Assembly: GCF_044704955.1 (NCBI RefSeq)
Contig: NC_091978.1
Span: 158,410,001 to 158,474,000 of the forward strand
Reading direction: 5' to 3'
Source of the DNA: Pristiophorus japonicus
Taxonomy: Eukaryota
Length of the DNA: 64,000 bases
A program made the position numbers and the translations under genes. This document shows, one piece after another, positions 13,077 through 31,109 of this stretch. Position 1 is the first letter of the stretch; each line of letters begins with the position of its first letter. A model generated the notes under the pieces. That model was not told the DNA's origin and did not search any database. It saw only the letters and a list, made by a program, of their open reading frames with translations.

Positions 13077-13220
13077 TCAAATGATGTATTTGAAGCTGAA
13101 AGTGCTGTCACAGGAGAGCCGTTTGCCTTTGCATCTCCCACACAGATCCTGGCGATGTGGTCTTTTTGGGTCAACGTGGCGCATTTTGATGGGACATGTA
13201 CATCTCGTCTGTTTGCAGGT
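13077..13220 (-). CDS. ZAR1: ZAR1 exon 4 (144 nt, TCKQTRCTCPIKMRHVDPKRPHRQDLCGRCKGKRLSCDSTFSFKYII*)
   Basis: Acceptor catcag, the conserved Zar1 C-terminus FSFKYII, TGA at 13077-13079. The spliced CDS is 1050 nt (349 aa) with no lesions. Confidence 0.95.
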   Translation of the reverse strand, partial: TCKQTRCTCPIKMRHVDPKRPHRQDLCGRCKGKRLSCDSTFSFKYII

Positions 13221-13310
13221 CTGATGGGCAGGAAAAAACAAGGCTCACTGTACGGATGCTGGATACTCCTCAAACTTCTACACAGGTTGTGTGCTTCCTG
13301 CGCTACTTAC

Positions 13311-13385
13311 TTGACAGGTGATGTCCTCGACACGGTAAGGGTTATAGGCCTTCTCGCAGGTTCTGCAAAACTGCTTAAAGTAGAC
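13311..13385 (-). CDS. ZAR1: ZAR1 exon 3 (75 nt, VYFKQFCRTCEKAYNPYRVEDITCQ)
   Basis: Acceptor gacag, donor CAA|GTAAGT. Conserved Zar1 zinc-finger sequence. Confidence 0.95.
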
Positions 13386-13459
13386 CTGTCGGACGAGGAG
13401 ATTCGTGATGCAGACGATTCTCATGAGATTACATATAAAAATATTATTTTTACACTTGC

Positions 13460-13552
13460 CTTGTTCGTGCCTTGTACACACCAAACGTAAGCACTCTCCC
13501 AGCGAGCATTACAATCTTTGCAATGGAAGTATCCGTACTTCTGCTCCAGGAA
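13460..13552 (-). CDS. ZAR1: ZAR1 exon 2 (93 nt, FLEQKYGYFHCKDCNARWESAYVWCVQGTNK)
   Basis: Acceptor ctttag. Start of the 3CxxC zinc-binding domain. The donor is AAG|GCAAGT (GC donor). Confidence 0.95.
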
Positions 13553-14194
13553 CTAAAGCGAAAGTAAAAGCGTTTAGGACTCAACAATCCAAACACCAGG
13601 TGGGAAATTGCACGGTTGTCGACCCGATGGAGGAGATGCTCATTAATACACAACCCCCAAGCAGTCACTATACAAATAGTAAGATTTTCCCCGTGTACAT
13701 TTTAAAATCCTCTTCAAGGGTCCGAATGGAGCTGCAATTAATCCAGGTTTGTACAAGAGAGGTTCTTAATTTTCTATTAGTGGAAGGTGTGCGATCGTTT
13801 CATAGTAGCTGCTGAAGCTGACCCCGTCAATGATGGCATGGGTCCCTATTCAGCATCATGTAACAAGACAACTTTTACTGGTGCTACCTGTGCCCAACCA
13901 GGGCTTAAACTGGGGCTTGGAATTTCCCCGGGGCTCCTCCATCTCCAGCCAAAGTGCTCCGGTGTTCCCAATTGTTTAATGGCAAATGGTAATCATAGAA
14001 AAGGGAGGGGAGAAAGTAGGGCTTGCGGATTAAGGTAGCTCAATTAGTGACAAGATTGACCAATCATTGATGCCGGGGGTGCGGCCAGCCTCGTTACTGG
14101 AACTTTAATCCTGCCAAGGTCTCGAAAACGGGCAGAGTGCTTCTGGGTGACTAACAGCAAGTATCAAAGTGCCTTGTGCTACTGGTTAAACTAC

Positions 14195-14518
14195 AACTCT
14201 TTGGGGTGGGGGGTGTGGTGGGACAAAATACGTTAAATCAAGTGCCCCCCGATCTGGGGGACACTCCAGACACTTAACTGCCCCTTTTTTTTAAGTTAGT
14301 TTTTTTTTGTGTTTTTTTTTGGGGGGGGGGGGCATTAAAACCATATATTTTACAAGTGCCCCCTATAAAAGGGGAGGGGGACACACAAAATCCAGCAATT
14401 AAAACACATATAAAATCAAATTAAAATTTGGTTGCCGGGGGTGACAATGCACTCCAGTCCCTCCGGCGCCCACCTCTCGCGGAAGGCCGCGAACGTACCG
14501 GTGGACCCAGCGTGCTCC
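14195..14518 (-). mobile_element. Short 3' fragment of a Tx1/L1-clade element in ZAR1 intron 1
   Basis: Closely similar (reverse complement) to ~33015-33350. Flanked by a 14-bp TSD ACTGGTTAAACTAC at 14181-14194 and 14519-14532. Confidence 0.85.
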
Positions 14519-15166
14519 ACTGGTTAAACTACAGCAGTATTCACGTACCACCAGCTTGCACTTCTCTGGACAGATTAGTGGGTCAAATCAATACAAAAAA
14601 AATGGGCGCTCCTCACACGAAAAGCCATTTAGATTGGTCAATAGTTTGCTTTGGAGACTGAGGGGGGGGGGGGGGAAAGAGATATTACGCGAATACATAT
14701 ATCCCACTTCAATGGCTTGCAGTTAATTACTGTCATAACATGGGGAATTTTACATATCTGCATCAAAAATCAGGATCAGTGTTAATGTCCTGATATCTAT
14801 GTCGCTCGATGTCAAATGGTGTTCGCTAACACTCGAAATGCCGAGACACATTTTACGACATGAAAGAAATTCATTTCTATAGCGCCTTTCACGACCACCG
14901 GACGGCTCAAAGCACTTTACAGTGGTCACTATTGTAATGTAGGAAACAATAAAAAGGCGCTATATAAACAAGTTGTAAGATCCACTATAAACCCATTGGC
15001 GATTTAAATTGGAAATTCATTTTCAACAAACTTCACTGGAATACATTGCCAATGGTCCTTCCCGTTTATTACGCCATAGCAATTAGACGGCAATGAAATG
15101 GACGTTATGTAATTTAGTACTCGAACATGTGGGCGGTTTCAAACTTCGGGGAAAGTACGTTCTCAC

Positions 15167-15904
15167 CTGAAATCTCAAGCGTTTCTCGTTTTTGGCGGTG
15201 TTGGCGGTCGGGGTTTCGGTGTCTTGCGCTTTCTCATCTATCACTGTACCTTCAGGCTGGTCAGCAGTTGTCCCACCTTGATCATCCACGGTTGCAGTTC
15301 CTTTCTCCTCAGATTCCTCAACAGGCTCGGATGCGGTTTCCTCCTTTATAGCTTTCTCCACTTCAGGCTCGCTCTTTTCTTCCTGGAGAGGTTTCTCTTG
15401 TGATTCTTTGGAATTTTGTTTTGCAGCATCCCGATCTCCCCGATAGAGGAAGGTATTTAGATTGGGTGACACGATAGGAGAGTAGATGGCCATGGTCCTC
15501 CGGAAGCGAACATTCTTGGGCATACTGGCCGGGCTCCCTTGGACTTGGTTCTGTGAAGCCCGGCGCTTGAATGCACCTTTCCGCCTCATAGTCAACATCA
15601 GGAGTGTCCTGGGACCCAAAGAACATTGCACAGACGCATCGGTTTTGGGGTTAACCTGGACTCCAACATCTTTCGTGTTAGCTTTTCTCACTCTTGGGGT
15701 TAGGTTTGGGTTCACTTGAGACAATATGGCTTTGAGCTGAGCTCGTTGATAGTTGTCGAAGTATTCGCCAGGGTCTCCATAATTGCTCAAGTAATTCCTC
15801 TGTCTCCAACTAGAACCTTTTGGTCGGTTACTTATGTATTGGTAAGAATAAGGATTATACGGTGAATAAATATAATCAAACACATCTTCACCGAGGGTAG
15901 CCAT
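15167..15904 (-). CDS. ZAR1: ZAR1 exon 1 (246 codons, MATLGEDVFDYIYSPYNPY...KRLRFQ)
   Basis: ATG at 15904. Contains the Zar1-family motifs QRAQLKAILSQVNPNLTPR and DVGVQVNPKTDASVQCSLGPRTL. Ends at the phase-0 donor CAG|GTGAGA. Confidence 0.95.
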
Positions 15905-16486: not shown

Positions 16487-17000
16487 TTACATTTGCGGAG
16501 TAGGTTCCATCATAATGGCGTGTTACTCACTCACACTCAGCTCTATAGGCGGAATCACTAATCTCTTCCTCCTTGAGTTACTTATAAGAAATGTCCGTGT
16601 CATTTATCCTGGTCTGGCGGTTCCTGCTTGTGTAACACGTCTCTTCTGAAGATTTTATATCCCAAAACAAAAAGGGCAGCTTCTGTAACTTGGAATAAAG
16701 CGTAGAGCAGAGGGAAGATGTAGATACTGCCAATTATACGGGGAAGGAAGGCTAATTACAGGATGGATGTACAGAGTTGGACATTTTGACATCCAGTTTC
16801 CAAAGAAACTGTCCTTTTGCAATAAGGAGGCAGGTTGAAGAGAGTGCCCAGACCATAACCAGCAGCATATCCAGCGAGCGGCATCAGCAGAGCCACAATG
16901 TACACAGAGGCTGGGATAGTGGCTAGAAGATCAGGTCCCAGCATGGTGCCAGTGAGGGTGAAGAGGATTATTAGAGTAACCATCAAGAACCATAAGGAAC
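16487..17000 (-). pseudogene. SLC10A4: SLC10A4 exon 3, disrupted
   Basis: Reads [25 protein letters not shown]...[43 protein letters not shown]...DTDISYK*LKEEE...IMMEPTPQM*. Stops at 16756-16758 and 16578-16580. Frameshifts at the exon start and near 16603. Confidence 0.92.
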
Positions 17001-17250
17001 CTTAGACAAGGAATATTTTTTTTTTATAAAAAGGACATTTTTTCACCATGTGTTAATTCTATTTCTATTAATTAGTTTGAATATTTTCACGTCCCATTTT
17101 CTAAAAAAAATACCAAGTTGTGTATATTTGGACTCGATGTAAGTTTGGCATGAATGTTCCAATATGTTGTTTGAGGGACGTTAACAGCCTACTCAATATG
17201 GTTGTAAAATGATGATGTAGGTGGGTAGTTCCTTATCAGCAGTAACAAAG

Positions 17251-20200
17251 AAACATAGAAACATAGAAAATAGGTGCAAGAGTAGGCCATTCGGCCCTTT
17301 GAGCCTGCACCACCATTTAATATAATCATGGCTGATCATGCAACTTCAGTACTCCATTCCTGCTTTCTCTCCATACCCCTTGATCCCTTTAGCCATAAGG
17401 ATCACATCTAACTCCCTTTTGAATTTATCTAACGAACTGGCCTCAACAACTTTCTATGGTAGAGAATTCCACACGTTCACAATTCTCTGAGTGAAGAAGT
17501 TTCTCCTCATCTCAGTCCTAAATGGCTTACCCCTTATCCTTAGACTGTGACCCCTGGTTCTGCACTTCCCCAATAGCAGGAACATTCTTCCTGCATCATG
17601 GACAAGGGAGAACCAGTTGATGTGGTATATTTGGACTTTCAGAAGGCTTTCGACAAGATCCCACACAAGAGATTAATGTGCAAAGTTAAAGCACATGGGA
17701 TTGGGGGTAGTGTGCTGACATGGATTGAGAACTGGTTGTCAGACAGGAAGCAAAGAGTAGGAGTAAATGGGGACTTTTCAGAATGGCAGGCAGTGACTAG
17801 TGGGGTACCGCAAGGTTCTGTGCTGGGGCCCCAGCTGTTTACACTGTATATTAATGATTTAGACGAGGGGATTAAATGTAGTATCTCCAAATTTGCGGAT
17901 GACACTAAGTTGGGTGGCAGTGTGAGCTGCGAGGAGGATGCTATGAGGCTGCAGAGCGACTTGGATAGGTTAGATGAGTGGGCAAATGCATGGCAGATGA
18001 AGTATAATGTGGATAAATGTGAGGTTATCCACTTTGGTGGTAAAAACAGAGAGACAGACTATTATCTGAATGGTGACAGATTAGGAAAAGGGGGGGTGCA
18101 ACGAGACCTGGGTGTCATGGTACATCAGTCATTGAAGGTTGGCATACAGGTACAGCAGGCGGTTAAGAAAGCAAATGGCATGTTGGCCTTCATAGCAAGG
18201 GGATTTGAGTACAGGGGCAGGGAGGTGTTGCTACAGTTGTACAGGGCCTTGGTGAGGCCACACCTGGAGTATTGTGTACAGTTTTGGTCTCCTAACCTGA
18301 GGAAGGACATTCTTGCTATTGAGGGAGTGCAGCGAAGGTTCACCAGACTGATTCCCAGGATGGCGGGACTGACCTATCAAGAAAGACTGGATCAACTGGG
18401 CTTGTATTCACTGGAGTTCAGAAGAATGAGAGGGGACCTCATAGAAATGTTTAAAATTCTGATGGGGTTAGACAGGTTAGATGCAGGAAGAATGTTCCCA
18501 ATGTTGGGGAAGTCCAGAACCAGGGGATACAGTCTAAGGATAAGGGGTAAGCCATTTAGGACCGAGATGAGGAGGAATTTCTTCACCCAGAGAGTGGTGA
18601 ACCTGTGGAATTCTCTACCACAGAAAGTTGTTGAGGCCAATTCACTAAATATATTCAAAAAGGAGTTAGATGAAGTCCTTACTACTTGGGGAATCAAGGG
18701 GTATGGTGAGAAAGCAGGAATGGGATACTGAAGTTGCATGTTCAGCCATGAACTCATTGAATGGCGGTGCAGTCTAGAAGGGCCGAATGGCCTACTCCTG
18801 CACCTATTTTCTATGTTTCTTTCTATCTAACCTGTCCAATCCCTTCAGAATTTTAAGTTTCTATGAGATCCCCTCTCATTCTTCTAAATTCCAATGAATA
18901 TAAGCCGAGTCGATCCAGTCTTTCTTCATATGTCAGTCCTGCCATCCCGGGAATCAGTCTGGTGAACCTTCGCTGCACTCCCTCAATAGCAAGAATGTCC
19001 TTCCTCAGATTAAGAGACCAAAACTGCACACAATATTCAAGGTGTGGTCTCACCAAGGACCTGTACAGCTGCAGTAAGACCTCCCTGCTCCTATACTCAA
19101 ATCCTCTCGCTATGAAGACCAGCATGCCATTTGCCTTCTTTACTGCCTGCTGTACCTGCATGCCTACCTTGAATGACTGATGTACCACAACACCCAGGTC
19201 TCGTTGCACCTCCCCTTTTACTAATCTGTCACCATTCAGATAATAATCTGCTTTCCTGTTTTTGCAACCAAAGTGGATAACCTCACACTTATCCACATTA
19301 TACTGCATCTGTCCATGCATTTGTCCATTCACCTAACCTGTCCAAGCCCCCCTGCAGCCCCCTAGCATCCTCCTCGCAGCTCACACTGCCACCCAGCTTG
19401 GTGTCATCTGCAAACTTGAAGATATTACATTCAATTCCTTTGTCTAAATCATTAATGTATATTGTAAATAGCTGGGGTCCCAGCACTGAGCCCTGTGGCA
19501 CCCTACCAGTCACTGCCTGCCATTCTGAAAAGGACCCGTTTATTCCTACTCTTTGCTTTTGTCTGCCAACCAGTTCCCTATCCAAGTCAATACATTACCC
19601 CCAATACCATGTGCCTTAATTTTGCACACTAATCCCTTGTGTGGGACCTTGTCAAAAGCCTTTTGAAAGTCCAAATACACCACATCCACTGGTTCTCCCT
19701 TATCCACTCTACTAGTTACATCCTCAAAAAATTCTGGAAGATTTGTCAAGCATGATTTCCCTTTCATAAATCCATGCTGACTTGGACCGATCCTGTCACT
19801 GCTTTCCAAATGCACTGCTATTACATCTTTAATAATTGATTCCAACATTTTCCCTACTACCGATGTCAGGCTAACTCGTCTCTCTCCCTCCTTTTTAAAA
19901 AAGTGGCATTACATTAGCTACCCTCCAATCCATAGGAACTGAACCAGAGTCTATTGACTGTTGGAAAATGACTACCAATGCATCCACTATTTCTAGGGCC
20001 ACTTCCTTAAGTACTATAGGATGCAGACTATCAGGCCCTGGTGATTTGTCGGCCTTCAGTCCCTTCAATTTCCCTAACACCATTTCCTGACTAATAAGGA
20101 TTTCCCTCAGTTCCCCCTTCTCGCTAGACCCTCGGTCCCCTGGTATTTTCGGGAGGTTATTCGTGTCTTCCTTAGTGAAGACAGAACCAAAGTATTTGTT

Positions 20201-20520
20201 CAATTGGTCTGCCATTTCCTTGTTCCCCATTATGAATTCCCCTGATTCTGACTGCAAGGGACCTACATTAGTCTTCACTAATCTTTTTCTCTTCACATAT
20301 CTATAGAAGATTTTATGTTCCCTGCAAGCTTACTCTCATACTCTATTTTTCCCCTCCTAATTAAACCCTTAGTCCTCCTCTGCTGATTTCTAAATTTCTC
20401 CCAGTCCTCAGGTTTGCTACTTTTTCTGGCCAATTTATATGCCTCTTCCTTGGATTTAACACTTTCCCTAATTTCCCTTGTTAGCCACGGTTGAGCCACC
20501 TTCCCCTTTTTACTCTTATG
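17251..20520 (-). mobile_element. CR1 LINE (minus strand) split by an oppositely oriented CR1, in SLC10A4 intron 2
   Basis: The minus-strand CR1 sequence AACATTCTTCCTGCATC|TAACCTGTCC is interrupted at ~17597 and resumes at ~18825. Confidence 0.88.
17598..18824 (+). mobile_element. Young 5'-truncated CR1 with an uninterrupted 377-aa RT C-terminal ORF
   Basis: ORF 17598-18731 with YLDFQKAFD, GVPQGSVLGP and KFADD. The 3' UTR ends TTCTATGTTTCT. Confidence 0.93.
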
Positions 20521-21612
20521 CCCCAGAATTCACAGTAGTAATGTCAGCTCCAAGAAATTTTCTGGATGATGAACGCAGAGTTATATAGGGTAACTCTCTG
20601 AGAATGTCAAACAAGAAACAATATATATCTACATCAGGATAGGGTTTCAACCGATGGTTCAGGAAATTCTAAATTTACATTATTTATAAAAAGAAAAAAA
20701 CTGTAAAAGCTCAAAATCTGAGCAAAGATGCACACCTGAAACATTAAACTCGGAGGAAAAATAAATTAATCCATTTCAGTGGAAAGGATTACAGCAAACT
20801 ACACTGGTGGGGTAAAGCTAACACCAGGGGTGAGCGAGAATCTGCCAGGTACAGTAATAAGGATATGTGAAAAGGGGGGATTTTAAAATAAAACTTATTT
20901 CAAAATCTGAGTGAGTAAACATAATGTAGGATTGATTCAAGTGAAGCCACACGAGGCAATGCACATCTTGATTTGGTAATGGTGAGTGACCCAGATAACA
21001 TATTATGCAGGCAAGGGGAGTTCTAGATGGATGATACCAATCACAGAATAAAGTTCAATAGGATTTGGAATACATTAATACCAAGGACCAACAATCAGGC
21101 TTGCAATTTTAAAAAACCCAACTTCAAGAGAATGAGTGAAGTACCTAAACAAATAATGGAAATTGTTTAACAACACTTCAGCTGAGGATAGATCAAAAAT
21201 CAAATGGGGGTGCTTTTCAGTTTGTGTGCTCACAGTCATTTTACTATTGAGGAAGGAGGGGAGGTTGGAAAATCCAGCAGCTTCTCTGTGGAGCCAAGCA
21301 TAAATAGACCATTAAAGCGGAAGGAGGCAGTCTTTGGGAAGGGAGAAATAAAGGAACTGGCAGTGGATAGAAGATTTTTGTGGGGCCAGGAAGAGCATTC
21401 GTAGTACCTGAAAATTGCATCAGATACTGCTCACCTGTTTACCGGCCTGTTCCATAATTGCGGTGATCTGGAGGAATTCTGATCCTGTCCTGGAATTATC
21501 TGAACTTTATAGCCCTAACTTAATGATCATGATAAAATGGGACTGTTTGTTATGGTTAAAACCCAGCACAGATCTCCAAACATTGCCCTTACACTGGGAC
21601 TTTTGAGGTTAT

Positions 21613-24600
21613 GATTTCATAGAATCATAGAAAATTACGACACAGAAGGAGGCCATGTGGCCCATCGTGTCCATGCAGGCCGAAAAAGAGTTACCCAGCC
21701 TAATCTCATCTTCCAGCACTAGGTTACGGCTCTTTAAGTGTACATCCAAGACCCTTTTAAATGTGATGAGGGTTTCTGCCTTTACAACCATTTGAGGCAG
21801 TGAGTTCCAGACTCCCACTTTTCTGCCCAACTGACCAGTTCATCAATATCTTCCTGCAGTCTAGAGCTTTCCTCCTCACTGTCAACCACACGGCCAATCT
21901 TTGTATCAACTGAAAAGTATTTATCATGCCCCCTATATTTAAGTCCAAATCATTATTGTATACTACAAAAAGTAAGGGACCAAGTACTGAGCCCTGTGGA
22001 ACCCAACTGGAAACAGCCTTCCAGTCACAAAAACTTCCCTTAACCATTGCCCTTTGCTTCCTGCCACTGAGGTGAAGCAATGTTTCCTCATCTCCCCTCT
22101 AATCCTTCTACCAACTACTTTAAATCTATGCCCCCTGGTTATTTGACCCCTCTGCTAAGGGAAATAGGTCCTTCATATCCACTCTATCTAAACCCCTCAA
22201 AATTTTATATACCTCAATTAAATCTCCCCTTAGCCCAATCTGTTCCAAGGAAAACATTCTCAGCCTATCCAATCTTTCCTCATAGCTAAAGTTTTCCAGT
22301 CCTGGTAACATCGTAAATCTCCTCTGCACACTTTCTAGTGCAATCACATCCTTCCTGTAATGTGGTGACTAAAACTGCACGCAGTACTCAAGCTATGGCC
22401 CAACTAGTTTTGTATACAGTTCTAGCATAACTTCCCTGCTCTTGTATTCTATGCCTCGGCTAATAAAGGAAAGCATTCCGTATGCCTTTTTAACTACCTT
22501 ATCAACCTGTCCTGCTACCTTTAAATATCTGTACATAAGAACATAAGAAAATAAGAAATAGGAACAGGAGTAGGCCATACGGCCCCTCGAGCCTGCTCCA
22601 CTATTCAATAAAATCATGGCTGATCTGATCATGGACTCAGCTCCACTTCCCTGCCCGCTCCCCATAACCCTTTATCTCCTTATCATTTAAGAAACTGTCT
22701 TAAACTGTGTTAAATTTATTCAATGTCCCAGCTTCCACAGCTCTCTGAGGCAGTGAATTCCACAGACTTACAACCCTCTGAGAGAAGAAATTTCTCCTCA
22801 TTTCTGTTTTAAGTGGGTGGCCCTTATTCTAAGTTCATGCCCTCTAGTTCTAGTCTCCCCCATCAGTGGAAACATCCTCTCTACATCCATCTTGTCAAGC
22901 CCCCTCATAATCTTATACGTTTTGATAAGATCACCTCTCATTCTTCTGAATTCCAATGAGTAGAGGCCCAACCTACTCAACCTTTCCTCATAAGTCAACC
23001 CCCTCATCTCCGGAATCAACCTAGTGAACCTTCTCTGAACTGCCTCCAAAGCAAGTATATCCTTTCATAAAAATGGAAACCAAAACTGCACACAGTATTC
23101 CAGGTGTGGCCTCACCAATGCCCTGTATAACTGTAGCAAGACTTCTCTGCTTTTATACTCCATCCCCTTTGCAGTAAAGTCCAACATTCCATTGGCCTTC
23201 CTGATCACTTGCTGTACCTGCATACTATCCTTTTGTGTTTCATGCACAAGTACCCCCAGGTCCCGCTGTACTGCAGCACTTTGCAATCTTTCTCCATTTA
23301 AATAATAACTTGCTCTTTGATTTTTTTCTACCAAAGTGCATGACCTCACACTTTCCAACATTATACTCCATCTACCAAACTTTTGCCCACTCACTTAGCC
23401 TGTCTATGTCCTTTTGCAGATTTTTTGTGTCCTCACACATTGCTTTTCCTCCCATCTTTGTATCGTCAGCAAACTTGGCTACGTTACACTCAGTCCCTTT
23501 TTCCAAGTCATTAATATAGGTTGTAAATAGTTGGGGTCCCAGCATTGATCCCTGTGGCACCCCACTAGTTACTGGTCTGTAGACATATGAGCCAAAGTCC
23601 CTCTGTTCCACCACACCTCTCAGTATCCTCCCATTTATTGTGGATTCCCTTGTTTTGTTGCTCCTCTCCAAATGCATTACCTCACACTTTTCCGGATTGA
23701 ATTCCATTTGCCACTTTTATGTCCAAGTGACCAGTTCATCGATATCTTCCCGCAGTCTAGAGCTTTCCTCCTCACTGTCAACCACATGGCCAATTTTTGT
23801 ATCATCTGCAAATTTCTTTATCATGCTCCCTACATTTAAGTCTAAAAATTGGAAAACGGCAAATGTAATGCCCCTATTTAAAAAAGGAGGCAGACAAAAA
23901 GCAGGAAACTACAGACCAGTTAGCCTAACATCTGTGGTTGGAAAAATGCTGGAGTCCATTAATAAAGAAGCAGTAGCAGGGCATTTGGAAAAGCATAATT
24001 CAGTCAGGCAGAGTCAGCATGGATTTATGAAGAAGTTACGTTTGACAAATTTGCTGGAATTCTTTGAGGATGTAACGAGCAGGGTGGATAAAGGGGAACC
24101 AGTGGATTTGGTGTTTTTGGACTTCCAGAAGGTATTTGATAAGGTGCCACATAAAAAGTTACTGCACAAGATAAAAGTTAACGGGTTGGGGGTAATATAT
24201 TAGCATGGATAGAAGATTGGCTAACTAACAGAAAACAGAGAGTCGGGATAAATGGTTCATTCTCGGGTTGGCAACCAGTAACTAGTGGGGTGCCACAGGG
24301 ATCAGTGCTGGAACCCTAACTATTTACAATCTATATTAATGACTTGGATGAAGGGACCGAGTGTAACGTAGCCAAGTTTGCTAATGATAAAAGATGGGAG
24401 GAAAAGCAATGTGTAAGGAAGACACAAAAAATCTGCAAAAGGACATAGACAGGCTAAGTGAGTGGGCAAAAGTTTGGCAGATGGAGTATAATTTTGGAAA
24501 GTGTGAGGTTATGCACTTTGACACAAAAAATCAAAGAGCAAGTTATTATTTAAATGGAGAAAGATTGCAAAGTGCTCCAGTACAGTGGGACCTGGGGAGT

Positions 24601-25650
24601 CCTGGTGCATGAAACACAAAAGGTTAATATGCAGGTACAGCACGTGATCAGGAAGGCCAATTAAATATTGGACTTTATTGCAAAGGGGATGGAGTATAAA
24701 AGCAGTGAAGTCTTGCTACAGTTATACAGGGTATTGGTGAGGCCACACCTGGAATACTGCATACAGTTTTGGTTTCCATATTTAAGAAAGGATATACTTG
24801 CTTCGGAGGCAGTTCAGAGAAGGTTCACAAGGTTGATTCCGGAGATGAGGGGGTTGACTTATGAGGAAAGGTTGAGTAGGTTGGGCCTCTAATCATTGGA
24901 ATTCAGAAGAATGAGAGGTGATCTTATCAAAACGTATAAGATTATGAGGGGGCTTAACAAGGTGGATGCAGAGAGGATGTTTCCACTGATAGGGGAGACT
25001 AGAACTAGGAAGCATAAAACTGAGATGAGGAGGAATTTCCTCTCTCAGAGGGTTATAAATCTGTGGAATTTGTTGCATCAGAGAGCCGTGGAAGCTGGGT
25101 CATTGAATAAATTTAAGACAGAGATAGACAGTTTCTTAACCAATAAGGGATAGGGGTTATGGGAGTGGGCAGGGAAGTGGACCTGAGTCCATGATCGGAT
25201 CAGCCATGATCCAATCATGGGCATACATATTAAGCGGTAGGCGACTTAATAGTGTAGATGAACGAAGGGACCTTGGAGTGCTCGTCCACAGATTCCTGAA
25301 ATTAGCAGGGCAGGTGGAGAAGGTGGTTAAGAAGGCATACAGAATGCTTGCCTTTATTGGCTGAGCAATAGAATATAAGAGCAGGGAGGTTATGCTTGAA
25401 ATTGTATAATACTTTGATTAGGCCACAGATGGAGTATTGCGTGCAGTTCTGGTCACCATATTATAGGAAGGATGTGATTGCACTAGAGAGGGTGCAGAGG
25501 AGATTTAGTAGGATGCTGCCTGGAATGGAGAATCTTAGTTATGAGGACAGATTGGATAGGCTGGATTTGTTTTCATTGGAACAGAGGAGGTTGAGAGGAG
25601 ACCTCATTGAGGTGTACAAAATATTGAGGGGCCTGGATATAGTGGAACAG
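21613..25650. mobile_element. Cluster of nested CR1 fragments of several subfamilies in both orientations
   Basis: RT C-terminal peptides on the minus strand (21613-23845) and the plus strand (23845-25650), with different microsatellite tails. Confidence 0.85.
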
Positions 25651-26044
25651 GAACTAACAAAGATATAAAATTCCCAAATGGTATAGTCAAATAAACACTT
25701 CACAGTAACATTCAGAACTGAACCTTGCAATTGCAGAAGTTCTGTTTACCATAAGTGGAAGTAAAACGAAGAAGTTGATTGATTTAAAAGTCCCCAAACC
25801 AAGGTTTCACCCAAGTAGACATTTTACAGTTGGAGAACTTTGGGTTTTGGATCACAGTTGTAGTGTGCTGGCCTGAATATCTGATTTACTTTTTATTTCC
25901 AGTGATTTCTGGCAAGGATAACACTGCTCAAAGACATGTGAGTTGTTATGTATCTTTGTTTTCTGCAATACTTTTATATATAAATTATTAAGATAAGATA
26001 TTGTTGTGAGATCTTTAACATCTACATGAATCACAGGAACAGAT

Positions 26045-26200
26045 AGATGGTGCCTCAGTTTAACATTTTATCCAAAGGACAGCACCACCGACTGCACTGG
26101 AAGGTCAGCATAGATTATGTACACACATTGATAATGGGGCTTGAACCCACAACCATCTGAGTCAGAGGCAAGAGTGTCACCATCTGACCCAAACTGACTC
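26045..26200 (-). mobile_element. 5' part of the same tRNA-derived SINE family
   Basis: Matches 7720-7860 (GGGCTTGAACCCACAACC B-box region). Confidence 0.6.
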
Positions 26201-27109
26201 ATTTACTAGTACTGTATTGGTCTTTTTGGTATTTCACAATAGTGAGAGAAATAATAACATTACATTTAAAACTTTGCATGCATTTATATTGTTAAACTTC
26301 TACACAAAATAATTATGATTGTTTATACAGGTCAGATATGAAAGGTGTTAATACTGAATTACAGTTGTAGCCATTGAAATAATGTAAGATTATACTATCA
26401 CTCTTGTGTTGATGCAAAGTGGTTTTGGATGCACATTGATGCAAATGTTGTATAATTTGGGAATTATATTCTGCAATGACTTCTTAACACACCCAAGGAA
26501 AGTGGGTATGAACCCTTCTCTAAGATGTTGTCTCATACTACTTGGGTTTCACACAAGGTGAGTATAACTCCAGTCAGGTGTGAAGACATTTTTTTAAAGG
26601 ACTGTTGGATCCCCTAGTTATTTTATAAATCTAGTATGAAGTGTTTTAATATTATGACAAAGCAAATGGTATGGTCCACTCTTTAACAAATTAAGGATTA
26701 GCTTTTGAGGAGTAGAGTATTGCACTTTCATCCAAGCATGCATGTGCATAGTTCTCTTCTGGGATGCAGAGTGTGAGTGGCAACTGGCAGAATAACTTCA
26801 ATTTTGCCAGCTGCACTTTGCAATCTATGGCCACTAGTGTCAGACCTGTAGTGCGGTATAAACACAGCCTACAGATTTGGATCGAAAAAGTAGTTCAATG
26901 GCAAAAGAACAGCCAACGGTAAACTGGGGGGCATTGATTTCCTCAATGGGTAAATATTAAGAATATATTGGATATACTTAATTTCAAAAGGGGAGTTGTT
27001 ACTCGTTTTTAATAGCTGATTACCGCACAGGATTGGCACATCTAGTGTTGGGATGTGGCGTTATAATAATCTTCTTGTGATTAATTTGGTTGGATCCCAC
27101 ATCTCAGTA

Positions 27110-27300
27110 AAGAAACAATGCTGGAACACCCAGCAGGTCAGAACAGGCCAGTTAACATTTCGGGTGCGGATCCTAGTTTTTGAAGAAGGGTTAGCGCCCA
27201 AAACATTAACTGGTCTTCTCGCCACAGATGCTGCCTGATTTGCTGAGTGTTTCTAGCAGATTCTGATTTTTATTTCAGGTCTCCAGCATCTGTTGTTTTC
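27110..27300. repeat. Penelope-like terminal-repeat fragments in inverted arrangement
   Basis: ATGCTGGAACACCCAGCAGGTCAG is followed by its imperfect reverse complement CTGATTTGCTGAGTGTTTCTAGCAG. Same family as 42066-42330 and 53225-53330. Confidence 0.55.
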
Positions 27301-27879
27301 ATTCCTTTTGTTCTCAATGTTCAGCGCGTGAGCCCAGTTCCTTCGACAGAGCTGCAAGAGTCCAATTGTTATCGGGTCGATTTGCCCTGTTATTTGTGTT
27401 TTGCAAATCACACATGAAGAAACTGGAGCCTCGGTGCGTCAATTCCGATTGGCAATAAATTGAAAAGAAAAATCTATAAAAAAAAGCGAGCAAGGCCCAG
27501 TAAATCCGTTTATTTCTTTAGTTGATAAGGAAATAAATGACCGTGTAATTATGCTGGCTGGACGAATAGTGTCTGCTCGGGGTGAATTGATTATTTTCAA
27601 TCTGGTATATCTGCAGGCATCCCAGACTGTGCATTTAAAATATATTGTATGCTTTTGCTAGTTTTACATGATCAAATCATCTTTACTGATCCGATTCATA
27701 TTTGAATTTCATACAATTGACTACAATATGTGCTTCACTCAGAAGACAGAAACAGCTGCCCGATTCTTGACCTTAGCTGGTCTTCGTTGAGCAAACAAAA
27801 GTGAGGATGTTTGTAATCAGTGTCAGCAGGTTTACACAAGGGACAGACACTGCTCGCCCATCCATTCCGGTCACCTTAC

Positions 27880-28089
27880 CTTCAGGAGAATGTCTGCGGC
27901 TCTCTTCTATCTGTATGTCATGAAGATCCCAGCCCTATCGGGATCAGAGTGCTGCACAGGGGGAGGGTTATCGCCCCAAAGGGAATGGGCTGAACGATAG
28001 GGGTGTTGATCCAGGCTCGGCTGTAAATCCACAGGCACAATGGCATCAGCAGCAGGGCCAGTAGTGTGGAGGAGATGGTCATGATTATA
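27880..28089 (-). pseudogene. SLC10A4: SLC10A4 exon 2, disrupted
   Basis: Reads IIMTISSTLLALLLMPLCLWIYSRAWINTPIVQ...LIPIGLG, then a 1-nt deletion, then IFMTYR*KRAADILLK (TAG 27907-27909). The exon is 210 nt where phase requires 211. Splice sites intact. Confidence 0.92.
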
Positions 28090-28578
28090 CTGTAAAAAGG
28101 AAAGGACAAATAGATCAGAGCAAACTCTGCTGTCAGAGAGCCCAGCTCATTCCCTACTTCTACAGGACCATTGCCCACACAGCCTTTAGCCCGGGCTCCC
28201 GGCACAACAGCTTGGCTCGAGTTCTCGAGACCAGCTTCCAGTTACTGGGAGATAGCTGAGGTACCGGTTTGATACTGGGTTACCGATGGGACGTGAGCCC
28301 AGAGTCCGGCTGCTCATTGCCCGGGCTCGGCCACCTGCAGCCGGCTCCTCTCGCCCTCTGAGTCCGGCCCCGTACACCGCCCCGCTCGCCATTCCGCTCC
28401 TTATTGGAAGGTAGTCTTGGAGTGTTGTTAACTTTTCAGTTCGGTTGCTTTGGCTCAGTTTAATCCGAGCAATCTGATTAAAGGGAGTGGAATGTAATGT
28501 ATGCAATGACCGGCTGACTCGCTACAGGCGAGTTAAGAGACCTCTCAGGCTGGCAACTATGCAGCGAGAGTTAGTTAC

Positions 28579-29049
28579 CTGAGGTTTATTTGGCCGTTGA
28601 CCAGCAGAGACATGATGTTGGAGAGATTCCCACCCGGCAGCAGCCACAGAGCAGCATGGCGATGGCAGACACTTCATTGAGAGAGAAGAGCAGGGCCAAG
28701 GGAAGGCCATCAAAGGCATGATGAGGAACTGCAGAACCCCCACCGGTCTCCTGAGGTGATCCCCAAGGTGGTTGATCTCCATCGTGCAGCTTAGGCCCAG
28801 CATGGTGAAGCACAGGATCGCCCCCACGGACACATTGAGGCGGTGGTTTAGGGCAGAGTCACAAAAAGGGGAGAGTTCACCAGAGTCGCTCAGAGTCGAA
28901 GCTTCTTGGGCCCAGAGGCTGGAGCCTTGCACAGTTGTCTGACCGGTGAAGCCTAGAGCAGTGCTGTTATAGAAGTCAGTGAAATTAGAAATATCTGGGA
29001 GGTCTAATGGGACCCAAGTAACATGTCCCACTGAAGTATGGTTCTCCAT
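28579..29049 (-). pseudogene. SLC10A4: SLC10A4 exon 1, disrupted
   Basis: Reads MENHTS...LNHRLNVSVGAILCFTMLGLSCTMEINHLGDHLRRPVG, then LALLFSLNEVSAIAMLLCGCC and GGNLSNIMSLLVNGQINL in shifted frames. Two 1-nt deletions and an apparent ~15-nt in-frame deletion. Donor AG|GTAACT intact. Confidence 0.9.
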
Positions 29050-29180
29050 CTCGAGCAGCCCAGGCTCTGTCCGTGGCCTCTGTCTGTCTGGTTATAATAA
29101 AGAAAACAACTTCCCTGCTTACTTCGAAAAGGTTCTCTGCCTCGGAGACAACACACGCTCCTGGGCATACTCACGCTGCA

Positions 29181-29255
29181 TTTATATGAGTTGGGTGCAA
29201 TCTCCTTTCCAGTAGACCCATCCACCGATGGTTTCTTCCAGTGGGAGCTTATTGG
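29181..29255 (-). promoter_or_regulatory. SLC10A4 core promoter: TATAAA (29181-29186) and CCAAT (29251-29255)
   Basis: Canonical motifs about 130 and 200 nt upstream of the ATG on the gene strand. Confidence 0.55.
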
Positions 29256-31109
29256 AGAGTAGATAGCCTTCTACCCTATTAAATATGAGCACCAGAAGTC
29301 TGATTAAAGAGAGGATATTAATCTCTCCACGCAGGGCTTTCTCATTACTGATTCCATCATCGATTTGGTCCGTTTTGTATTTATTACTTTGAGGTTTCAA
29401 GTTCTGGAATAGAAATACACAGAATTGAGAAATACGCCAACACATTACTAATGGTATCTGTGAATTCTATTTTTACACCGATTTCTTTAAGACCCATCAA
29501 TATCTTCCCTATATTCCATGTAACGTGTATTTATATGTGTAGGAAGTGCTGATAATGCTGTGTGTGTGTAGGAAGAGAGTCCGGATTATAAGGTTTAGTT
29601 GAGATGATGGAAGCTGGTCACTGAAGTTCTCCAGCGCCCCGTCACATCTACCGCTGTCCTTCAGCTCCTGCCGCAGTCTGGAACGCGCTAGTTAACCCTA
29701 CAATCCCGAAAGGACACAACCCCACATTCTGGTTTGTAAAAAGTAAGACTTCAACTACAGAAAGCGGATTTCTTTTCCAGGAAGTAATTCTTTTTCTCCA
29801 ATGTAAATGTATTTCCCGTCCTTAGGTCTGCCTCCCCGGATACTCACAGAACTATGTGCTCCTGGGTCTTTAGCCGGCACCACAGTACAAGCAGTGACTG
29901 GGGAAGATAGTGCCCTCGGCCACGACCAGCTGCCTTTAAGTTCTCCCACTCGTTCTTCGGAAAAACTCCAAGTGCATCCCCGTTACTCGTGGCTATTAGG
30001 AATTCCGTTTCCCGCTTCTATCCTTCAATTATTAAATAATAATTCATTGAACTTCAAAGTGATTAATCATATGCTGTCTGACCTACTGGAGTATTTCCAG
30101 CATTTTCTGTTTTTATTTACAACTAGAGCATGGATGAAAAGTAGTTTCCTCTTTGCAGTGGGAGGAAAGTTGTGTAAATCCAGAGTCAAGGTTCCATGAC
30201 TGCAGATTGAAGGGGAGAGAGTCTCAGTGGAAAGAAACAAATGAACTTGCATCTATAAAGCGTCTTACCATGTCATCAGGAACTCCCAAAGGCAATGGAT
30301 GGTGTCGGGACAGTTGTTATGAAGGAAGAGGTTCGTTGGATTTTGCTGCGAAGTCAGTTGAAGCAAACTGCTTCTCACCAAAGAAGTCTACAAAATGCAA
30401 TCAGGCTTAAAAAGCAGCAGCGACAAGCTCCTTTTTATGAAACAAAGCCACAAAGAATTCCGATTAGCTCCATTTATTACGGCCATTTATTTTAACATTG
30501 GAGTTACTGGTTTGAAAGGGTTACTGAGCCTAACACCGAGATGGATGCACAGTAGCTCCAGGGATACCGATGTTCCCTACTAATGTTAATTCAATCCCTC
30601 ATGTAGTAAGGTCAGTAACTCCACCGAGGTAGTAGTGCCCTCAATTATCTCATCAGTAATTAGAGCTTTAACAAAAATATTTTAAAACAATGATGGGAAT
30701 CGAACACAATAAAATGCTAATTTATTCAACATTTAATTAAAAGTGACACTGAGAATATATTTTCCCATTTCACGCACTCTGTGTTAAGTACTCCCAGGGC
30801 GGGCAAAGTAGGATCAATTACAGAGTAAAATCCGCTTCTACTCTGTCCCAACCATATGTTTTAGCCCCAACTGCAGGAAAGCGCTCTGTAACGTGTCATT
30901 GTGACATTTTCCACGTCCTATAACCTCTCTCCTATGGCCTTTCTCAACGCCATCTCCACGTCTAGTGCCAGCTCGTGGCAGTTTGTACTGTGTATTAGAA
31001 ACCTCATTGAGACGGACACAAGACTCTTATCAGCAGCAGCAAATGAGAGTTTGTCCTACAGTCGAAGCTGGATTTGAATCCATGTCCCAGAGTTGAAAGA
31101 TCAGTAAAA

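Follow-up and report, generated by a model that had tools for sequence, protein, structure and literature searches.

We analysed a 64,000-nucleotide (nt) stretch of the genome of the shark Pristiophorus japonicus (hereafter the window: positions 158410001-158474000 of contig NC_091978.1, here C2, in a 5.92 Gb assembly of 4318 contigs) that carries the remnant of SLC10A4. SLC10A4 is an orphan, accessory protein of cholinergic and monoaminergic synaptic vesicles and of mast-cell granules. We hold with high confidence that the remnant is a unitary pseudogene: the gene is disabled in place, and our searches of the assembly turned up no other copy. A single loss of function is likely, followed by neutral decay over what are likely tens of millions of years. 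This shark lineage is likely a natural SLC10A4 knockout.

Ten frame-breaking lesions disable SLC10A4

By splice-site reading, the remnant consists of three coding exons on the minus strand, from 29049 to 16487, with two GT-AG introns. Lesions were called by frameshift-aware alignment of the spliced model to the Heptranchias, Cetorhinus, Callorhinchus and Pristis orthologues, and all four references gave one identical set. The gene is disabled by six frameshifts and four premature stops, ten frame-breaking lesions in addition to a 15-nt deletion:

28579..29049, minus strand: coding exon 1, with ATG at 29049 and GT donor at 28578 (alignment and read contigs)
28731..28732, minus strand: junction of the 15-nt in-frame deletion, exon 1; Heptranchias residues 115-119 lost
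28700..28701, minus strand: frameshift 1 (-1) at L130, exon 1, following 116 in-frame codons
28635..28636, minus strand: frameshift 2 (-1) at P152 of the CCPGG motif, exon 1 (alignment)
27880..28089, minus strand: exon 2, flanked by AG and GT (alignment and read contigs)
27925..27926, minus strand: frameshift 3 (-1) at V226, exon 2 (alignment)
27907..27909, minus strand: premature TAG at Y232, exon 2, the earliest stop reached by the spliced model
16487..17000, minus strand: exon 3, ending with the terminal TAA at 16489-16487 (alignment)
16999..17000, minus strand: frameshift 4 (-1) at V242, first codon of exon 3 (alignment)
16756..16758, minus strand: premature TAA at K323, exon 3; K in 26/26 intact orthologues
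16602..16605, minus strand: frameshift 5 (+1) near D374, exon 3 (alignment)
16578..16580, minus strand: premature TAA at K382, exon 3 (alignment)
16538..16541, minus strand: frameshift 6 (-2 or +1) near V396, exon 3, in a GT/GA repeat (alignment)
16523..16525, minus strand: premature TAA at Heptranchias Q401, exon 3 (alignment)

A preliminary description of this locus had every lesion that it listed in the right place and missed only the stop at 16525-16523. The five residues removed by the 15-nt deletion are kept in all 26 intact orthologues aligned. Gaps of 2 and 6 residues in the N-terminal tail were left out of the count because tail length varies among intact orthologues. Taken as it is, the spliced model encodes 217 amino acids (aa), is in the native frame only for the first 116, and stops at 27909. 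The SBF domain (PF01758) is not in open frame at the window locus, with three frame breaks inside the domain region. The first stop sits 27 nt 5' of the last exon junction; under the 50-55-nt rule for nonsense-mediated decay, the transcript is predicted to escape degradation.

The remnant is orthologous and stands at the ancestral position

Is the remnant the shark's own SLC10A4? Its conceptual translation is 84% identical to Heptranchias SLC10A4 (329/393 codons), and 88% in the core. In a protein search, the exon-3 piece matched Heptranchias SLC10A4 best among the matches listed (E 8e-67, 89% identity), so the likeness is not due to chance; all informatively named proteins among the best 120 of 295 matches were SLC10A4, and the matches listed include annotated SLC10A4 from chimaeras to primates. 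A tree of 27 proteins placed the remnant inside the starred chondrichthyan SLC10A4 clade (96/97). A separate tree of SLC10 paralogues, which left 7 of its 10 inner branches open, was not used.

The neighbourhood agrees. SLAIN-family exons (C2:158.51-158.64 Mb) lie upstream of the remnant and share its strand. The next gene downstream is ZAR1, followed by a FRY-family gene in the opposite orientation, whose last matched exon (C2:158408204-158408479) ends 1.5 kb before the window. The local order, SLAIN family - SLC10A4 - ZAR1 - FRY family, fits what we take to be the mammalian order, SLAIN2-SLC10A4-ZAR1-FRYL, at the level of families, SLAIN2 versus SLAIN1 and FRYL versus FRY not being separated by sequence. 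Judged from the sequence, the remnant is the shark's own SLC10A4 orthologue at its ancestral position, with introns kept, and not a processed copy. The protein match, the clade and the SLAIN, ZAR1 and FRY neighbours uphold the initial assignment of an SLC10A4 pseudogene to its syntenic place beside ZAR1. Mammals have two SLAIN genes; three SLAIN-family loci were seen in the assembly, at C2:158.5-158.6 Mb, C6:78.6 Mb and C10:24.6-24.7 Mb.

Searches of the assembly yielded no other SLC10A4

A genome-wide search for an intact copy had been proposed as a check. Five DNA, protein and profile searches across the 5.9 Gb assembly, whose completeness is not reported, found no second SLC10A4 (match counts are lower bounds). 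Exon-1 DNA matched only itself, and exon-3 DNA matched itself and a 79-nt, 80% identical paralogue piece on C4. The exon-3 protein gave five matches with a runner-up at 49%, and the Heptranchias protein gave 13, of which only the three window exons exceeded 54%. The PF01758 profile returned eight matches at six other loci and none at the window locus. From their translations, we take these six to be two single-exon SLC10A3/A5-type, three ASBT/SOAT-type and one NTCP-type locus; the closest, at C4:185.8 Mb, scored 131-134 bits against solved NTCP chains. The two single-exon paralogues are unbroken, with open reading frames (ORFs) of 463 and 442 aa.

The three ASBT/SOAT-like loci, at C10:90.5 Mb, C2:228.4 Mb and C4:56.1 Mb, are distinct genes with several exons each. 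Two genes of this class are known in mammals, and the one at C4:56.1 Mb may be an old paralogue that was kept here.

Read contigs reproduce the lesions of exons 1 and 2

In all three runs compared (3/3), a single read-derived contig of 2891 nt was identical to the assembly, with no gaps, across 27800-29300. Five lesions (the 15-nt deletion, three frameshifts and the TAG) lie in these read-matched exons. Apart from a 33-nt partial match in run X1, none of the three runs contained a second contig at least 85% alike along exon 1 or 2. An intact allele would likely give such a contig, and the lesions of exons 1 and 2 are thus probably, though not provably, homozygous in the sample, contigs being able to drop variants. 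This read support concerns one sample and does not extend to fixation in the species. No RNA run was listed as containing the DNA, and run X5, from another sample and of unrecorded kind, had nothing on exons 1 and 2; neither was counted as evidence on expression.

Nothing in the control genes, ZAR1 and the two single-exon paralogues, hints at widespread frameshift error. The suggested check of reads on each lesion was thus borne out in part, exactly for exons 1 and 2 in 3/3 runs and without cover for exon 3. The initial judgement that homopolymer sequencing error would hardly explain everything stands, since the four stops are substitutions and exons 1 and 2 match read contigs.

Decay is specific to SLC10A4

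Relaxed selection, also raised at the outset, was scored at 167 core sites that are invariant in all 19 intact chondrichthyan SLC10A4 proteins (7 of the 19 are short models of 322-325 aa that start at an internal Met). In the remnant, one of these sites falls in a gap and three at breaks; of the 163 left to score, 14 carry missense changes. Intact species scored likewise have 0-6 changes in 167-174 sites (Heptranchias 3/170, Callorhinchus 3, Hemitrygon 6/174). The missense excess is significant against Heptranchias SLC10A4 (14/163 vs 3/170, Fisher p 0.005) and against ZAR1 of the same genome (14/163 vs 0/121, p 0.0004), and each of the 14 changes is reachable by one base change. The end branch of SLC10A4 measures 0.11 for the remnant vs 0.018 for Heptranchias, and that of ZAR1 0.051 for the window genome vs 0.052 for Heptranchias. 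Because the ZAR1 branches are alike and the SLC10A4 branches are not, the speed-up is specific to SLC10A4. By this amino-acid proxy, the evidence points to relaxed selection on the remnant and to neutral decay.

ZAR1 itself occupies the following interval:

13077..15904, minus strand: intact ZAR1, exons 15904-15167, 13552-13460, 13385-13311 and 13220-13077; 349 aa

The gene splices to an unbroken 349-aa ORF, in agreement with the early remark that it is flawless. Its nearest annotated match is Heptranchias perlo (90% over 348 columns), and in the ZAR1 tree, without starred support, the window protein groups with elasmobranchs nearest Heptranchias but with neither the galeomorph nor the batoid clade, a position that makes a squalomorph shark likely. 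Among the control references at the invariant ZAR1 sites, Leucoraja has 32 changes and Narcine 9; the other 16 of 18 intact references have 0-3. ZAR1 intron 2 has a GC donor at 13459-13458 (a GC-AG intron).

The loss is likely tens of millions of years old

How long ago was SLC10A4 lost? The 11-14 missense changes correspond to ~0.035-0.045 neutral substitutions per site (rough range 0.017-0.08). A white-shark study used 1.93e-8 per generation of 11 years, or 1.75e-9 per year (PMC12358869), the fastest published nuclear rate that we met, and at this rate the loss dates to 20-26 million years (Myr) ago. With slower, assumed rates of 5e-10 and 2e-10 per year, the age becomes 70-90 and 175-225 Myr, respectively; a direct estimate for the epaulette shark is 7e-10 per generation (PMC10587355). 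A second route gives 32-165 Myr, with an assumed ratio of nonsynonymous to synonymous substitutions (dN/dS) of 0.03-0.1 in the intact gene and a split from Hexanchiformes 200-290 Myr ago, of which the lower figure is an assumption and the upper comes from 10.64898/2026.02.13.705779.

On these assumed rates, the loss is likely tens of millions of years old and does not fall within the last few million. The preliminary description had called it fairly recent on the ground of high protein similarity; high similarity among sharks does not imply a recent loss, and ten frame-breaking lesions with ~0.035-0.045 substitutions per site leave that claim unsupported. An old loss predicts that some lesions are common to close relatives. 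A search for short SLC10A4 fragments from closer relatives returned 54 matches, none above 80% identity, and nothing for dating.

Weighing the alternatives

Several points weigh against a unitary pseudogene as described here. (i) The runs containing this DNA all come from one sample, possibly the assembly's own source, and exon 3 is uncovered by read contigs (0/4 runs; a filter may drop contigs), so its six lesions rest on the assembly. (ii) The Heptranchias-protein search ran with a stricter first pass, unlike those with exon-1 DNA, exon-3 DNA and exon-3 protein. (iii) The node uniting the remnant, Heptranchias and Callorhinchus is poorly resolved in the 27-protein tree. (iv) The selection test uses an amino-acid proxy in place of dN/dS, and Hemitrygon, annotated as intact, has six changes of its own at 174 invariant sites. 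(v) The date rests on assumed rates, and four stops were found where 1.2-1.6 are expected at a divergence of 0.04-0.05 (P 0.03-0.08). This excess either favours the upper divergence range or means that the neutral model is crude; a simple neutral model fits loosely.

The locus could be a duplicate pseudogene, with an intact SLC10A4 elsewhere that is missing from the assembly or collapsed in it. The unreported genome completeness, the stricter pass of the Heptranchias search and the lower-bound counts leave some room for such a copy, yet the broken copy is the one that occupies the ancestral position, the exon-1 DNA, exon-3 DNA and exon-3 protein searches, run without the stricter pass, found no other, and the three runs contained no second contig at least 85% alike along exons 1 and 2 save the 33-nt match in X1. 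We consider a hidden intact copy highly improbable. Errors of assembly or sequencing, or a null allele confined to one haplotype, are hardly credible: some frameshifts do fall in short runs or repeats (28636, 17000, 16605, 16538), exon 3 lacks read cover and Logan contigs drop rare variants, but exons 1 and 2, with five lesions, show 0 differences from read contigs, the four stops arose by substitution, as did the 14 missense changes at invariant sites, and ZAR1 and the two single-exon SLC10 paralogues are unbroken in the same assembly. Moreover, an intact allele, with dozens of expected differences, should form its own contig.

A locus that still functions, through the truncated 217-aa protein, an RNA or a regulatory element, would accord with the persistence of the ATG, splice sites, TATA and CCAAT boxes and with the predicted escape from nonsense-mediated decay. 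Against this, the in-frame part carries the 15-nt deletion and two invariant-site changes (G95S, V98M), and short motifs are expected to survive at ~4% divergence; retained function thus appears extremely unlikely. Loss of the gene in place, followed by neutral decay, is the explanation that we retain.

Promoter and intron features

The preliminary description had reported all three exons with splice sites and a TATA box, and the two GT-AG introns and TATAAA at 29186-29181 confirm it. Two elements lie upstream of the ATG:

29181..29186, minus strand: TATAAA box, 132 nt 5' of the SLC10A4 ATG
29251..29255, minus strand: CCAAT box, a predicted promoter element (motif reading)

Two Chiloscyllium gene models have an over-extended N-terminus to which the segment 29280-29200 is similar (48% over 25-27 aa; E 0.002-0.004 in a comparison with the window). 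This likeness suggests that sharks have conserved the DNA upstream of the remnant, CCAAT box included. The pyrimidine tract before the exon-3 acceptor is broken by ten A in a row (17015-17025), which may weaken splicing. Intron 2 holds a 384-aa reverse-transcriptase-like ORF (17577-18728, plus strand), which we take to be a repeat of the long interspersed element (LINE) type; fragments that look LINE-like and long-terminal-repeat-like fill 30000-64000.

Discussion

What is the likely route of loss? In reports on mice, constitutive Slc10a4 knockouts have mild memory and gating deficits and lower vesicular monoamine content (PMC13569439), and Slc10a4 loss weakens mast-cell degranulation (PMC5430724); transport screens found no substrate for SLC10A4 (PMC4472396). 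Since the mouse phenotype is mild, a first null mutation in this accessory vesicle protein could have been tolerated, and it may have been fixed by drift after selection relaxed. Later lesions would then have accumulated without constraint, vesicle filling would be left to VMAT2 and VAChT alone, and the remnant, if transcribed, would yield only the 217-aa product, off the native frame past 116 residues. Drift under relaxed selection is the most likely route; adaptive loss is the alternative.

A wild lineage that has likely done without SLC10A4 for millions of years means that the gene is dispensable over evolutionary time, and the loss offers a handle for co-loss analysis and for comparing vesicle physiology with sharks that retain it. 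The surprise is moderate, as unitary gene loss is common and mouse knockouts are mild. We found no published report of SLC10A4 loss in the listed titles and starts of abstracts; supplements lay outside this search, and shark gene-loss tables there could list one. The loss appears new for this gene, while unitary pseudogenization itself is an ordinary kind of event.

Annotated, stop-free SLC10A4 proteins exist in 19 other cartilaginous fishes. Heterodontus francisci, Narcine bancroftii and Hypanus sabinus have ZAR1 entries and no SLC10A4 among the best 120 of 295 matches or in the 10 clusters opened; Heterodontus SLC10A4, if present, would be expected near the top of the match list. These absences are possible further losses, or gaps in listing or annotation. 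Hemitrygon akajei SLC10A4 has, besides its six changes (among them C150G in the CCPGG motif), one gap, the most among intact references, and is possibly relaxed, or reflects an error of model or assembly. A bolder scenario, which we regard as speculative and rather unlikely, is that a shark clade of several species lost SLC10A4 in its common ancestor tens of Myr ago and that other elasmobranchs lost it independently, with Heterodontus, Narcine and Hypanus as leads. If true, vertebrates would offer several natural knockouts to compare, and genes lost together with SLC10A4, along with physiology common to these lineages, would point to its substrate or partner.

How does the remnant compare with known systems? 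Like intact chondrichthyan SLC10A4 (Heptranchias perlo XP_067844134.1 and 18 further species), it retains a C-terminal segment of the DTDISYKKLKEE type; unlike them, it alone has ten frame-breaking lesions, the 15-nt deletion and 14 missense changes at invariant sites. Mouse Slc10a4 (VAAT) knockouts lack the same gene, whereas the shark case is an evolutionary, likely long-standing loss in a wild vertebrate, known from genome sequence. The closest parallel that we can draw is the wolverine SLC10A5 pseudogene (PMC9339297), likewise a syntenic, frameshifted orphan SLC10 remnant with no other copy found; it concerns another paralogue and another lineage, and wolverine SLC10A4 is among the annotated members.

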